Part shown: piece after piece, positions 55,371 to 59,030 of the stretch
Position numbering within the stretch: the stretch's first letter is position 1
Layout of the letters: each line of letters starts with the position of its first letter
Assembly (NCBI GenBank): GCA_964618625.1
Contig: CAZUBI010000001.1
Location: 65,940-129,939, forward strand
DNA length: 64,000 bases
Direction: 5' to 3'
From: an uncultured Candidatus Saccharibacteria bacterium
GTDB taxonomy: Bacteria > Patescibacteriota > Minisyncoccia > UBA6257
Notes under the pieces: generated by a model
Databases searched by the model: none
Told to the model about the DNA's origin: nothing
Seen by the model: the letters and a program-made list of their open reading frames with translations, nothing else
Made by a program: the position numbers and the translations under genes

Positions 55371-55488
55371 ATTTTTAAAATTCCAATTATAATTATTTTA
55401 AAGTTTTTATCGACCTTTTTATTTGATTTTCTTCTACATTAAAAGTATAACAACCTTTAGCTATTAGTCAAGAACCTGAAATTACCAG

Positions 55489-55562
55489 TGCGCGTGTCTG
55501 GATTCGAACCAGAGACCTTACGAATGTGAATCGTACGCTCTAACCAACTGAGCTACACGCGC
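55489..55562 (-). tRNA. tRNA-Val (anticodon CAC)
   Basis: Hand-folded cloverleaf: acceptor GCGCGTG/CACGCGC, D-arm GCTC/GAGC, anticodon loop TTCACAT, T-arm TCTGG-TTCGAAT-CCAGA; no encoded CCA. Confidence 0.8.
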
Positions 55563-55578
55563 ACTTTTCATTTAATTC

Positions 55579-55998
55579 TTATTTTATCTCTACTGTAGCA
55601 CCAGCTTCTTCTAATCTTTTCTTAATTTCTTCTGCTTCAGACACAGAAATATTCTCTTTTAACGCTTTTGGAGCAGCATCAACTAAATCTTTTGCTTCTT
55701 TCAGTCCCAAACCCATAATTTCCTTTATATCTTTTATTATCTGCACTTTTGCTTGACCAGCGTCTTTAAGAATTACAGAAACTGATTCTTTCTTTTCTCC
55801 AGCTACCTCTTCTTCACCGGCGCTAGTTGCGCCAGCTGAAGCTACTACTTGAGGAACAGCAGAAACACCAAATTTATCTTCCAAAGCATTAACTAAATCA
55901 ACTAACTCTATAACATTTAATTCCTCTACCTTTTTAATTATCTCCTGTAATTTTTCAGAAACTTTTTCTTCTTTCTTTTTCTCTTTTTTTTCTACCAT
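55579..55998 (-). CDS. rplL: 50S ribosomal protein L7/L12 with a Lys/Glu-rich N-terminal extension
   Basis: C-terminal L12 domain ([64 protein letters not shown]). Confidence 0.85.
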
Positions 55999-56028: not shown

Positions 56029-56547
56029 TTATTTTGTTGCTTTTATGCCCTCCAATACCACAACTAATTTCTGAATATTTCCATTTAAGGTATATAATAA
56101 TCGTTGCATTGGAGAAGCTATTGAACCAACTAATCGACCTAAAAGTATATCTTTTGATGGTATTTTTGCTAATCTTATTACTTTTTCTGCGTCTAAGAAT
56201 GCCCCGTCTGTTATTCCTCCCAAAATTTGAAATTTATCATTCTTTTTGGAAAAATTCCAAAGTACTTTAGCTGTGTTAATCGGATCATCAAAAGCAAAAT
56301 TGACCATAAAAGAATTTGCTTCGTTATTGGAAACCTCATCTTTATAGCCTTCATGAGAAAAAACGATTTTAGCTAAGTTCTTTTTTACTACTCTCGCTTT
56401 AGCATTATCTTTTTTTAATTCTTGGCGTAATTCATTCATTTCAGAAACTTTCAATCCTAAAAATTTGACAAAATAAATTGCCTTAGCTTTTTTTATCTGT
56501 TCTGATAATTCTTTAATAATTTGTTTCTTTTTTTCTTTAGAAATCAT
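56029..56547 (-). CDS. rplJ: 50S ribosomal protein L10; start taken at MISKEKKK (the ORF could extend 19 codons upstream to 56604)
   Basis: L10 sequence; rplJ-rplL order. Confidence 0.8.
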   Translation of the reverse strand: MISKEKKKQIIKELSEQIKKAKAIYFVKFLGLKVSEMNELRQELKKDNAKARVVKKNLAKIVFSHEGYKDEVSNNEANSFMVNFAFDDPINTAKVLWNFSKKNDKFQILGGITDGAFLDAEKVIRLAKIPSKDILLGRLVGSIASPMQRLLYTLNGNIQKLVVVLEGIKATK

Positions 56548-56570
56548 AAAAAATAATAAATAATTAAAAA

Positions 56571-56588
56571 TCTGTGGTTTCCCACAGA
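56571..56588 (-). promoter_or_regulatory. rplJ leader hairpin plus U-run (attenuator-like) immediately before the rplJ ATG
   Basis: Minus strand: TCTGTGG-GAAA-CCACAGA followed by TTTTTAATTATTTATTATTTTTT ATG. Confidence 0.4.
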
Positions 56589-56786
56589 TAGAATATAAAA
56601 ACATTAAATTTATTCCTTACCAGGTCTTATACGTAATTGTTGCCTGATGTCTTGGGAAACTTTGGAAATTTTCCTTAAGTATACAGGATTAAACTTTTTT
56701 GTCAACTATAAAGAGTGAGTGGAGTGGGGTAATGGCAGGATATTTTATCTTATTCTTTTTAAGTTGCACTATTTATATTTCTCCTT

Positions 56787-57113
56787 TTAGAATTTTGTAA
56801 ATTTCCCAATAAATCTCTCTGCTTCATCTATCATCAAACTATTTAGGTAGAGATTTATTGATTGCATTTTCTTCAGAATCACCCCCTCCTTCAACATTGC
56901 ATTTTTTAAAAGCCTTTTTAATTTAACAACGGTTAAATCCTTGCCCTGAGCTTTTAATTTCGCAACAGATAAAACATACTTCATCTGTTGATCATCTTTT
57001 TCCTTCAGTACTTTTTCTAACACATTCTTGCTTTTAGTAATCTCTTGTCCGTATGTAGAAAAGAAGTGTTTCCTTGGTCCAGAGATTGTTCTTTTAATTT
57101 CCACGACAAACAC
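56787..57113 (-). CDS. hypothetical 108-aa protein inside a cassette bracketed by a 14-bp perfect inverted repeat
   Basis: ORF; IR GGGTAATGGCAGGA at 56727-56740 and its reverse complement at 57127-57140. Confidence 0.35.
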   Translation of the reverse strand: MFVVEIKRTISGPRKHFFSTYGQEITKSKNVLEKVLKEKDDQQMKYVLSVAKLKAQGKDLTVVKLKRLLKNAMLKEGVILKKMQSINLYLNSLMIDEAERFIGKFTKF

Positions 57114-57180
57114 CTCCTTTTATTTTTCCTGCCATTACCCTAATCAATAATTATAGAATAAAGTAAGATGAAGTCAAGAG

Positions 57181-57252
57181 AGCCGGAGGCGAGATTCGAA
57201 CTCGCGACTTGCTGTTTACGAAACAGCTACTCTACCACTGAGTTACCCCGGC
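57181..57252 (-). tRNA. tRNA-Thr (anticodon CGU)
   Basis: Hand-folded: acceptor GCCGGGG/CTCCGGC (one G.U), D-arm ACTC/GAGT, anticodon loop TTCGTAA, T-arm GCGAG-TTCGAAT-CTCGC. The plus-strand ORF 57168..57584 over it is spurious. Confidence 0.8.
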
Positions 57253-57697
57253 GTGTCATAGCCAATAAACGACCTTCTTTAACCCTTTTGCTCAAAGCTC
57301 GGTCTTTCCTGCCATTTCCCTTATTTAACCCAGCATATGTGGGAGTCAATGAGTCACAATTTGGACAAATTAAGCGAAGATTGCTTTCAATATTATTGCG
57401 CCAATTGCCATCAATATGGTCAGCAACCAATGGAACTTGTCCGGTCTTAGGATTAATCTTTGACCATCCACACAAACAACACTTATTTCCAAACTTTCTT
57501 CGTAAATATCGTTTAATATATGCTGAAACTATACCTATACTTTGTAACCCTTTCACTTCCCCAGCTTTCCATTTTTTGATATAAGACTGATATTGATATT
57601 CAATTTGGCATGCATTGCTACAATATTTATATCCCACACGTGGTGTTTCTTTACCACAACTGAGACATTTCTTTCTGGGTTTTTTAGGTATTGGCAT
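57227..57697 (-). CDS. HNH endonuclease (stand-alone, homing-endonuclease-like); 3' end overlaps tRNA-Thr by 26 nt
   Basis: Cys4 pairs CLSCGK...CSNAC and CCLCGW..., HNH core ADHIDGNWRNNIESNLRLICPNCD. Confidence 0.65.
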   Translation of the reverse strand: MPIPKKPRKKCLSCGKETPRVGYKYCSNACQIEYQYQSYIKKWKAGEVKGLQSIGIVSAYIKRYLRRKFGNKCCLCGWSKINPKTGQVPLVADHIDGNWRNNIESNLRLICPNCDSLTPTYAGLNKGNGRKDRALSKRVKEGRLLAMTRRGNSVVE

Positions 57698-57762
57698 ACA
57701 TATTAAGTATATGGGATTTATCGACCAGCGTCAAGATTAGAAGTGGTTGCAGGTTGAAAAAA

Positions 57763-57790
57763 GATTGCTCTACCATTGAGCTATCCAGGC
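57763..57790 (-). pseudogene. tRNA-like 5' fragment (acceptor plus D-arm only: GCCTGGATAGCTCAATGGTAGAGCAATC)
   Basis: Perfect tRNA 5' half but no anticodon/T-arm or matching 3' acceptor within 150 nt. Confidence 0.35.
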
Positions 57791-57869
57791 GTTCTTTGTA
57801 TAAATTACCAGAAATTATAAGAATTGTAAATATGCTTTATCTATGCTAAAATTCACTAAATTAAAAATT

Positions 57870-59030
57870 ATGAAAAGAATATATTTAGATTATGCTGCCA
57901 CTACTCCTGTTGACCCTCGCGTATTAAAAGCGATGCTTCCTTATTTTACAGAAAGATTTGGAAATTCTGTTTCTCTATATAGTCTCGGGCAAGAAGCAAA
58001 AAAAGCTTTAGAAAAAAGCCGTTTGATAATGGCAGAAGCTATTAATACAAAAGACAAAGAAGAAATAATTTTTACGAGCTCAGCAACAGAAAGTAATAAT
58101 CTTGCTATTAAGGGAATAGCTTTTGCCAACCAAAACAAAGGCAAACATATTATTATCTCCTCTATTGAACATAGCTGCGTTCTAAACAGCGCTGAATGGT
58201 TAGAAAAACAAGGGTTTAAAATTACAAAAATAAAAGTAAATAAATACGGTTTAATAAACCCAAAAGAAATAGAAAAAGCTATAAGAAAAGATACAATATT
58301 AGTATCAATTATTCATGCTAATAATGAGATTGGAACGATTGAACCAATTGAAAAAATAGGAAAAATCTGTGAAAAGAAAAAGATATATTTTCATACTGAC
58401 GCAGTTCAAAGTTTTGGAAAAATGCCTCTTGATGTACAGAAAATGAAAGTTGATTTACTAACTGCTTCTTCACATAAAATTTATGGGCCAAAAGGCGCGG
58501 CTTTATTATATATTAAAAAAGGAACAAAAATAGAACCATTGATTCATGGCGGAGGCCATGAATTTGGGTTAAGAGCATCAACAGTTAATGTTCCGGCAAT
58601 TGTAGGATTTGGAAAAGCAGTAGAAATCTGTGAAAAAGAAATGAAAAAAGAATCAAAAAGACAAATTAAGTTGAGAGATAGGCTAATCAATGGAGTTTTG
58701 GATAAAATACCAGATTCTCATCTTAATGGCCATTCAAAAAAACGATTGCCTAATAATGCTAATTTTTGGTTTTCTTACGTTGAAGGCGAATCTATTGTAA
58801 TAAATTTAAATTCCTATGGAATTGCCGCTTCTACTGGTTCTGCTTGTTCTTCTGAGGAATTAGAGCCTAGTCATATTCTTTTAGCATGCGGATTACGACC
58901 AGAACAGGCGCATGGTTCTTTAAGATTAACCATAGGAAGATGGACTAAAAAACAAGACATTGATTACCTGCTTGAAATACTGTCAAAAACTATAAAAAAA
59001 TTAAGAAAGATATCCCCATATGTACAATAA
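57870..59030 (+). CDS. iscS: cysteine desulfurase (IscS/NifS); start at MKRIYLDYAATTP (the ORF track extends to 57843)
   Basis: Class-V PLP fold with SSHKIYGPKG lysine motif and SACSS active-site Cys region. Confidence 0.85.
   Translation: MKRIYLDYAATTPVDPRVLKAMLPYFTERFGNSVSLYSLGQEAKKALEKSRLIMAEAINTKDKEEIIFTSSATESNNLAIKGIAFANQNKGKHIIISSIEHSCVLNSAEWLEKQGFKITKIKVNKYGLINPKEIEKAIRKDTILVSIIHANNEIGTIEPIEKIGKICEKKKIYFHTDAVQSFGKMPLDVQKMKVDLLTASSHKIYGPKGAALLYIKKGTKIEPLIHGGGHEFGLRASTVNVPAIVGFGKAVEICEKEMKKESKRQIKLRDRLINGVLDKIPDSHLNGHSKKRLPNNANFWFSYVEGESIVINLNSYGIAASTGSACSSEELEPSHILLACGLRPEQAHGSLRLTIGRWTKKQDIDYLLEILSKTIKKLRKISPYVQ

Follow-up and report, generated by a model that had tools for sequence, protein, structure and literature searches.

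A clade-conserved inverted repeat around a small basic-protein gene upstream of rplJ-rplL, and its predicted pairing of the 5' UTR with the 3' UTR within one mRNA

In the window analyzed here (the whole stretch of DNA, 64,000 nucleotides), a small gene located upstream of rplJ is bracketed by the two arms of an inverted repeat, and comparison with related loci together with RNA folding suggests that this element is a new, unusually well-conserved example of bacterial 5'UTR-3'UTR mRNA pairing, in CPR bacteria. We place it in this class on the grounds that its arms fall in both UTRs of one cistron and that structure prediction and covariation both support their pairing.

The repeat, the gene it brackets and its neighborhood

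The 14-mer GGGTAATGGCAGGA occurs at positions 56727-56740 of the plus strand and its exact reverse complement, TCCTGCCATTACCC on the same strand, at 57127-57140, with 386 nt separating the two arms. The perfect 14-bp repeat and the 386-bp interior described in the first-pass annotation are thus borne out, both by reading the sequence and by a repeat finder, which returned the same arm pair extended to 19 nt with 89% complementarity. The accompanying claim that so GC-rich a repeat is unlikely to arise by chance also holds: perfect 14-nt inverted repeats less than 1 kb apart are in themselves no rarity, with 6 seed hits (5 distinct pairs) in the window, nearly all AT-rich, where 200 first-order Markov simulations of the 31% GC window averaged 3.2, but in none of the 200 simulated windows was there such a repeat with at least 8 G/C, as in the real pair. 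When at most one mismatch is allowed, the 14-mer occurs three times in the 64 kb, the third copy (57307-57320, minus strand, one mismatch) lying within the HNH endonuclease gene, in which it encodes the peptide NKGNGRK; the L009 homologue of that gene differs there (GGGGAATGGCCGG), and this copy is probably unrelated to the arm pair. Across about 250 kb of fetched related sequence, the motif corresponds to the two arms alone, plus the HNH-internal copy in the window.

The genes of the region all lie on the minus strand, and its features are the following, from upstream to downstream:

57697..57227, minus strand: HNH endonuclease ORF, a neighbor in the window, upstream of the small gene
57180..57252, minus strand: tRNA-Thr(CGU), directly upstream of P1, with the same arrangement in most relatives
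57150..57177, minus strand: promoter P1 of the small gene (TTGACT, 16 nt, TATAAT; 11 of 12 consensus matches), directly after tRNA-Thr
57127..57140, minus strand: 5' arm of the predicted closing helix, GGGUAAUGGCAGGA, about 9 nt past the -10 box
57111..57118, minus strand: Shine-Dalgarno (SD) region, AGGAGGUG, with predicted pairing to the coding segment 57059-57066 (CUUCUUUU)
56787..57104, minus strand: gene for a 105-aa protein, GTG start at 57104, TAA stop at 56787-56789
56963..56990, minus strand: predicted hairpin inside the coding region, CAACAGAUGA / UUAUCUGUUG; relatives carry compensatory changes
56809..56858, minus strand: predicted helix within the coding region, in its 3' part, AUAAAUCUCU / AGAGAUUUAU; here too relatives carry compensatory changes
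56689..56784, minus strand: 3'-UTR block with GGAG (56781-56784), then GUG-CAA-CUU from 56769, which opens a candidate mini-ORF
56727..56740, minus strand: 3' arm of the predicted closing helix, UCCUGCCAUUACCC, 46 nt past the stop codon
56678..56705, minus strand: promoter P2 of rplJ (TTGACA, 16 nt, TATACT), conserved in relatives and outside the helix
56554..56674, minus strand: L10 leader, RF00557-like (32.4 bits against a gathering score of 44, E = 0.0046)
56570-56589, minus strand: attenuator hairpin with a U-run within the L10 leader, found by a scan for terminator-like hairpins
56029..56547, minus strand: rplJ (ribosomal protein L10; PF00466, E = 3e-19)
55579-55998, minus strand: rplL, after rplJ, with tRNA-Val next

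The one ORF previously noted between the arms, at 56787..57113 on the minus strand, is the only sizeable one there, and its start has been moved to GTG 57104, which is likely the true start of the gene. This SD-proximal codon sits 8 nt after AAGGAGG, and the 105-aa product that starts there is 100% identical to a database protein (P0001, 105 aa). An AUG within the 5' arm, which several gene callers take as the start ("MAGK..."), was rejected: with respect to the SD-proximal start it turns up in each of the three frames, and L034 lacks it. Comparison of the loci shows it to be a real, conserved gene: insertions and deletions in the alignment have lengths divisible by three, nearly all loci keep the SD at its distance from the start codon, and diversity by codon position follows the order 3 > 1 > 2 (0.391, 0.311, 0.252).

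The family of small basic proteins to which its product belongs is narrow and unannotated. Database searching returned 23 homologues, with identity down to 41%, an exhaustive profile search gave only 18 clusters at 50% identity among 1.84 billion representatives, and a scan of species-representative genomes found only one locus with the gene. As had been supposed from the sequence, the protein falls in no recognizable family: Pfam, NCBIfam, PHROGs, PADLOC and a profile search of PDB sequences gave no match past any curated threshold, and Foldseek searches of its AlphaFold (AF2) model against PDB and BFVD gave a best E-value of about 3. This model (pLDDT 78.7) is all-helical, with a disordered N-terminus followed by five helices. 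The window's protein has a pI of 10.0, and all family members are strongly basic (pI 9.2-10.8, net charge +4.5 to +17.6). A protein of 2264 aa with eight partial matches (P0038) was set aside as tail-fibre-like (Peptidase_S74, Laminin_G_3), the match being judged to reflect repetitive helical sequence. One distant family member is annotated from a Candidatus Paceibacterota MAG and one locus is labelled Saccharibacteria; these labels place the lineage of the gene in CPR/Patescibacteria, in a Paceibacteria-like clade.

The hexamers and spacing of P1 are kept in nearly all relatives, and the position of this promoter predicts a transcription start for the small gene at about A57141, with the 5' arm beginning at roughly +2 and lying within about +1 to +15 of the expected P1 transcript. 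An A-rich spacer lies between the 5' arm and AAGGAGGUG. At the other end, the 3' UTR is A-rich before the 3' arm, and a pyrimidine-rich, nearly G-free tract comes after it; in transcript orientation, the outer flanks of the arms are TATTGATTA and CACTCCACT. The terminator scan found no intrinsic terminator between tRNA-Thr, the small ORF and rplJ, its sole find being the L10-leader hairpin, and in the absence of any terminator-like site from the ORF to rplJ the arms would fall in the 5' UTR and the 3' UTR of the small gene. The arms themselves were considered as an intrinsic terminator and rejected, as they are 386 nt apart and are followed by CCCCACUCC instead of U. The possible mini-ORF of the 3' UTR, of 26 codons, reads across the 3' arm and ends at 56689. 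Its GGAG and its start-CAA-CUU block are kept in 22 of the 24 loci examined, with AUG, GUG or UUG as start codon; it always crosses the 3' arm, but in varying frames, the frame over the arm not being conserved.

Further downstream, the L10 leader match is full-length (model positions 1-138) though sub-threshold, and rplJ presumably starts at ATG 56547 (MISKEKKK...), as it does in relatives (172-173 aa). Even at a permissive threshold, Rfam models detected only tRNA-Thr and the L10 leader in 56400-57900, and nothing at the arms. The segment had been described as lying between tRNA-Thr and rplJ, with neither rplK nor rplA in the window; the tRNA and rplJ are confirmed, and tblastn with E. coli queries gave no match in the window to rplK, rplA or nusG. 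The remark that rplK-rplA would be expected at this place does not fit the conserved layout of the clade, which is tRNA-Thr, then ORF-rplJ-rplL.

The comparison set comprised 43 fetched loci, 28 of them distinct at the arms, with protein identities of about 37-99%. Wherever the downstream flank is readable, the small gene is found directly upstream of rplJ-rplL and co-directional with them, except in L043, in which a beta-propeller gene comes after the small ORF, neither rplJ nor P2 is present downstream, and both arms are kept. The upstream neighbors vary (IscS with tRNA-Thr, a GTPase-SIS protein, MurD or a Na/Pi transporter). Both arms occupy equivalent positions in every locus with both flanks readable, and the order conserved across the 28 distinct loci is promoter, 5' arm, SD, ORF, 3' arm, second promoter, L10 leader, with the 3' arm lying 20-90 nt past the stop codon and at a varying distance of 14-40 nt from the -35 box of P2. 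The pair is thus neither a one-off nor absent from relatives that carry the ORF, the conditions that had been named as fatal to the original observation, and because the arms occur in all of these readable loci, L043 included, the inverted repeat belongs to the small gene and not to rplJ or to a mobile element. The linkage to rplJ-rplL also suggests a role of the small protein in or near the ribosome.

Folding and covariation of the arms

From an alignment of 21 sequences over the whole transcript region (549 columns), RNAalifold paired, unprompted, columns 10-22 with columns 517-529 as the outermost helix. The arm helix also closes every MFE and centroid fold computed from single sequences, namely the transcripts of the window, of L043 and of L033; their z-scores are -3.6, -5.4 and -5.2, respectively, and 0 of 100 shuffles reached a fold as good. 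This closing helix, the two strands of which follow the motif GGUAAUGGCAGG/CCUGCCAUUGCC, spans 13-15 bp, and 4-bp extensions across bulges are seen in a few loci.

Taken alone, the full-length alignment of 21 sequences gives marginal covariation (24 of 500 shuffles), as the two arms hardly vary between the closer relatives. The set was enlarged with divergent loci to 27 distinct arm pairs, in which pairing holds in 89.4% of cells, slid registers giving 31-52%. For this set, the covariation score is 0.166 against 0.112 +/- 0.010 (reached by 0 of 500 shuffles) and both-side changes amount to 10 cells against 3.7 expected (again 0 of 500), a significance that depends on a few divergent loci (L032, L033, L034, L037 and L043) and on sequences that share ancestry. 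Among these, the arms of L034 (CGGCAAUAGCGGU / ACUGCUAUUGCCG) differ by four double changes and one A-U to G·U change, and those of L033 (AAGCAAUGGCAG / CUGCCAUUGCUU) by three double changes. Differences that would disrupt pairing are a C·A in L024, a G·G in L030 and 1-nt deletions in L039 and L042.

The kind of mismatch that the arms tolerate is informative as to the molecule in which they would pair. In all, 27 mismatch cells are G·U and 7 are A·C, and within the inner core the counts are 20 and 2, an asymmetry that is expected only if the sense-strand RNA forms the helix; one pair is most commonly U·G, which amounts to a T/C difference between the arms as DNA. This asymmetry is the sole argument specific to RNA, since concerted change of the two arms would also fit paired DNA sites. 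The arms are moreover strongly constrained in sequence, with a mean pairwise difference of 0.044 for the 5' arm, the most conserved stretch of the locus, and 0.113 for the 3' arm, against 0.252 at second codon positions.

Inside the closing helix, three further predicted helices were scored. Helix 2, in which the SD (57118-57111) would pair with 57066-57059, is 96.6% paired, and the sequestration of the SD is weakly supported because its changes are one-sided only. Helix 4 (56990-56963) has 10 pairs, 3 with both-side changes (97.1% paired), and helix 6 (56858-56849 with 56818-56809) has 9 pairs, 4 with both-side changes (93.1% paired), counts that derive from a structure obtained by RNAalifold on the same alignment and are confounded by coding constraints.

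Judging from the sequences and the modelled folds, we consider it likely that the arms act as an RNA helix. Of the options listed in the first-pass annotation, that of a long-range helix in the minus-strand transcript stands in part: prediction and covariation speak for the helix itself, but its placement in the rplJ leader is not retained, since both arms lie upstream of the leader match (56554-56674) and of P2, the L10 leader having its own promoter downstream of the 3' arm, and since L043 keeps the helix.

A putative end-to-end clamp and its known analogues

By analogy with the hbs mRNA of Bacillus subtilis, we regard as the probable function of the helix a clamp between the 5' UTR and the 3' UTR that would control the stability or processing of the mRNA. 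The helix would join the extreme 5' end of the small-gene mRNA to its 3' UTR and close a globally structured mRNA of about 420 nt into a "panhandle." With a start at about A57141, no more than 1-2 nt would be left unpaired at the 5' end. RNA 5' ends with so few unpaired nucleotides are poor substrates for 5'-end-dependent RNases, and it is because a nearly fully paired 5' end is a poor substrate for 5'-end-dependent decay that a stabilizing end-to-end clamp is proposed. Such a clamp may shield the two ends of the RNA, and perhaps a cleavage site close by, from 5'-end-dependent RNases and from 3' exonucleases. As no terminator separates the small gene from rplJ, the helix could also act in read-through transcripts as a fence between the small-gene mRNA and the L10 leader; alternatively, a double-strand-specific RNase might separate the mRNA from the leader at the helix in these transcripts. 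Since the possible mini-ORF runs through the 3' arm, its translation may transiently open the clamp, which would couple stability to translation. That one transcript carries both arms is inferred from the position of P1 and from the lack of a terminator in between, and co-transcription with rplJ, the two ends of the transcript and the effect on stability are likewise predictions.

The hbs mRNA appears to be the closest experimentally characterized analogue. In B. subtilis, a 14-bp interaction between its 5' and 3' UTRs modulates cleavage by RNase Y (Braun, Durand & Condon 2017, PMC5737220). The two systems would share a long-range helix of about 14 bp that joins the 5' UTR to the 3' UTR in a short monocistronic mRNA (about 380-420 nt), and in both the mRNA is highly structured, its SD is very strong and its product is a small basic protein. 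By restricting cleavage by RNase Y, the hbs pairing ties stability to translation, whereas an effect on nucleases is a proposal for the present locus. The likeness extends neither to sequence nor to protein homology; the 5' arm is here expected at the extreme 5' end and not on an internal cleavage site, and the pairing covaries across the clade, when the hbs 3' UTR is reported to be unconserved among close relatives (PMC7821165).

Further bacterial pairings between 5' and 3' UTRs are known in icaR and RNAIII (PMC7821165). In icaR, the 3' UTR of this Staphylococcus aureus mRNA pairs with its own 5' UTR and circularizes the transcript (Ruiz de los Mozos et al. 2013, as summarized in PMC7821165), and the resulting duplex affects translation and creates a double-stranded RNase substrate. 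A UCCCC motif of the icaR 3' UTR pairs with the SD itself, whereas here the arms lie outside the SD, which is predicted to pair with a coding segment. The adjacent L10 leader (RF00557), known for attenuation by L10(L12)4 in B. subtilis (PMC4538822), shares the intergenic neighborhood of the helix, yet the arms are upstream of the rplJ promoter and L043 keeps the helix without rplJ; from the leader sequence, feedback by ribosomal protein probably takes place next door. A more general resemblance is with rRNA operons. The 16S and 23S rRNAs are bracketed there by long-range processing stems, in which complementary flanks likewise enclose a functional unit; these stems are however longer and surround non-coding RNA, whereas the present helix has 13-15 bp around a coding sequence, with a promoter just outside each arm.

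Alternative readings and implications

The main rival of the clamp is that the helix serves as an autoregulatory RNA operator, bound most plausibly by the encoded basic protein or by a ribosomal stalk protein through mimicry of its natural RNA target, a reading that we hold to be unlikely; equally unlikely in our judgment is its consequence that binding represses translation or triggers decay, as in classical ribosomal-protein feedback. The conservation of the primary sequence of the arms, which exceeds that of second codon positions and goes beyond the needs of pairing, hints at sequence-specific recognition by a protein, which would shift the balance toward autoregulation. Other observations point the same way: all family members are small and strongly basic, the gene is nearly always linked to rplJ-rplL, prediction places the SD inside a conserved helix that would sequester it, and the adjacent L10 leader works by such feedback (PMC4538822). 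Against this, searches of Pfam, NCBIfam, PDB sequences and Foldseek gave the protein no RNA-binding or ribosomal-protein homology, and L034 alters 5 of 13 pairs yet keeps the helix, a pattern that fits selection on pairing better than a fixed recognition sequence. A likeness between the arms and the 23S GTPase-centre or 16S sequences was also considered and not retained. We lean, at little better than even confidence, toward control of stability or processing as the main role of the helix rather than protein-mediated autoregulation.

In another reading, the helix would serve solely as a processing stem of RNase III type, at which the small mRNA would be cut out of a tRNA-Thr-ORF-rplJL precursor in the manner of the stems around 16S and 23S rRNA. 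The helix does bracket a complete cistron, no intrinsic terminator was found between tRNA-Thr, the ORF and rplJ, and the icaR 5'-3' UTR duplex is described as an RNase III substrate (PMC7821165). With 13-15 bp, the present stem is however shorter than typical substrates. Those span about two helical turns. The conserved promoters that immediately precede the 5' arm and immediately follow the 3' arm also suggest separate transcription starts and make excision less necessary, and we judge processing alone to be quite unlikely.

A related idea, bolder than the operator from which it extends, is that the small protein is a new ribosome-associated protein, possibly stalk-proximal, which would be feedback-regulated through a helix mimicking an rRNA site and would thus form, beside the L10 leader, a pair of ribosomal protein and operator. 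Such a protein would suit lineages from which standard ribosomal proteins (L1, L9 or L30, for instance) are known to have disappeared. We regard this as a long shot.

The arms could also be read at the DNA level, as inverted sites for one DNA-binding protein that would co-regulate the small gene and rplJL, possibly by looping. The 5' arm would overlap the start of P1 transcripts and the 3' arm lies 14-40 nt upstream of the P2 -35 box; the arm sequences are highly conserved and change in concert in L034 and L033, as a shared binding protein would bring about. Very unlikely in our view, this reading has to contend with arm differences of which by far the most could be G·U pairs in the sense strand (27 against 7 in all, 20 against 2 within the core), with one pair whose commonest state, U·G, would be a T/C difference between the two "sites," with a varying distance between the 3' arm and P2, and with L043, which keeps the arms in the absence of rplJ or P2 downstream; in addition, the site is not palindromic and the protein model has no recognizable DNA-binding fold.

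Mobile or invertible DNA, that is, a miniature cassette with terminal inverted repeats or a segment flipped by a recombinase, had been among the initial options, and a perfect 14-bp inverted repeat around a single ORF would suit it, as would the proximity of a real insertion, the HNH homing-endonuclease cassette 90 bp from the repeat-bounded segment. Both options are now rejected as extremely unlikely, on account of a single orientation and of the lack of empty sites, duplications and recombinase or transposase neighbors: the position and orientation are identical in all 43 fetched loci, the ORF being co-directional with P1 and rplJ in 43/43 (minor isomers may go unseen in assemblies); each of the 28 distinct orthologous loci carries the segment, with no empty site or presence-absence polymorphism seen; no direct repeat indicative of target-site duplication flanks the arms in the window or in relatives; no extra copy exists in the 64-kb window or in about 250 kb of related loci; and no recombinase Pfam family turns up among the neighbors in any gene table of the fetched loci, neither a recombinase nor a transposase being a conserved neighbor and the HNH endonuclease not being a recombinase. 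The arms of most relatives are also imperfect as DNA, owing to the T/C difference, with differences that are G·U-compatible. In an AT-rich genome, then, a small ORF flanked by a GC-rich inverted repeat need not be mobile DNA.

From the perspective of the ribosome, the near-obligatory linkage to rplJ-rplL flags an unannotated family of basic proteins in organisms known for reduced ribosomes, and the reading of its members as ribosome-associated proteins would, if true, reveal a previously unrecognized lineage-specific ribosomal protein with its own operator. As regards the clamp that we favor, only a few bacterial mRNAs are, to our knowledge, known to pair their 5' and 3' UTRs, namely RNAIII, icaR and hbs. 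The functional 3' UTRs of such pairings are usually unconserved even among close relatives, as stated in a review (PMC7821165). A candidate that is conserved clade-wide and carries compensatory changes would thus bring comparative support to the idea that end-to-end clamps can be long-lived, selected features of bacterial mRNAs.

Translation signals around the inverted repeat

Features within and on either side of the small ORF (window coordinates):
57131-57133, minus strand: AUG within the 5′ arm (AAUGGCAGG, 'MAG...')
57059-57118, minus strand: predicted Shine-Dalgarno helix region, from consensus and single-sequence folds
56689-56784, minus strand: 3′-UTR block with a putative mini-ORF, conserved in relatives

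The 3′ arm of the 14-bp inverted repeat lies within a conserved 3′-UTR block that begins GGAG, then 5-12 nt, then AUG/GUG/UUG-CAA-CUU ('MQL...'). This block opens a putative mini-ORF of 16-54 codons that starts near the stop codon of the small ORF and crosses the 3′ arm in every case, yet it does so in all three frames, and its peptide is therefore unconserved. In some relatives (loci L001, L004, L018 and L032), the GGAG/MQL block is found inside an extended C-terminus of the main ORF. A possible role for the block and its mini-ORF is in translational re-initiation, by which the arm helix would be opened.

At the other end of the small ORF, the two kinds of fold agree in predicting that the Shine-Dalgarno AGGAGGUG is paired with CUUCUUUU in codons 13-16, a stretch that is also the most conserved N-terminal region of the peptide. 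Support for this modeled helix is weak, because changes in relatives are one-sided (wobble) only. Gene callers have taken the AUG of the 5′ arm as the start in several homologues of the small ORF (P0012, P0019, P0026, P0033, and P0034), and the resulting N-terminal extensions are artefactual; in the window, this AUG opens an out-of-frame, 13-codon uORF that overlaps the true start.

A putative HNH cassette upstream

Features upstream of the small ORF:
57227-57795, minus strand: putative HNH cassette region
57697..57227, minus strand: HNH homing-type endonuclease gene (PHROG 1271, E = 4e-17)
57307-57320, minus strand: third copy of the arm motif, GGGAAATGGCAGGA, with 1 mismatch (18/20 identical with flanks)

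A cassette containing the HNH gene appears, from sequence comparison, to have been inserted within a tRNA-Thr gene. Positions 57768-57795 (minus strand) correspond to the initial 27-28 nt of an L016-type tRNA-Thr(CGU), broken at the anticodon stem and preceded by the sequence that precedes the intact tRNA-Thr gene of L001 and L016; the HNH gene follows, and then an intact tRNA-Thr (57252-57180). Loci L009 and L022 carry an HNH gene 78% identical to that of the window, directly followed by tRNA-Thr, in a genomic context that differs from the window's, and L004 shares the context of L009 but lacks the HNH gene.

Located 55 nt upstream of tRNA-Thr, the third motif copy falls in the HNH codons for the peptide NKGNGRK, and the HNH homologue of L009 has GGGGAATGGCCGG at the equivalent position. 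Chance alone is unlikely to produce so close a copy in a window of 31% GC.

The L10 leader and the tRNA-bounded gene block

Features flanking rplJ and rplL:
56554-56674, minus strand: full-length L10 leader match, 32.4 bits, below the Rfam gathering score of 44
55488-55562, minus strand: tRNA-Val(CAC), downstream of rplL

This CPR variant of the L10 leader seems to escape Rfam's curated threshold. Since its 5′ segment GUUUCCCA is complementary to, and able to pair with, part of the terminator hairpin (UGGGAAAC), the leader's sequence suggests an antiterminator/terminator switch, in which it would resemble the Bacillus subtilis rplJL attenuator. In the window as in relatives L001, L016, L023, and L037, rplL is followed by tRNA-Val(CAC), and tRNA-Thr, the small ORF, rplJ, rplL, and tRNA-Val therefore form a conserved unit with tRNAs at both ends.
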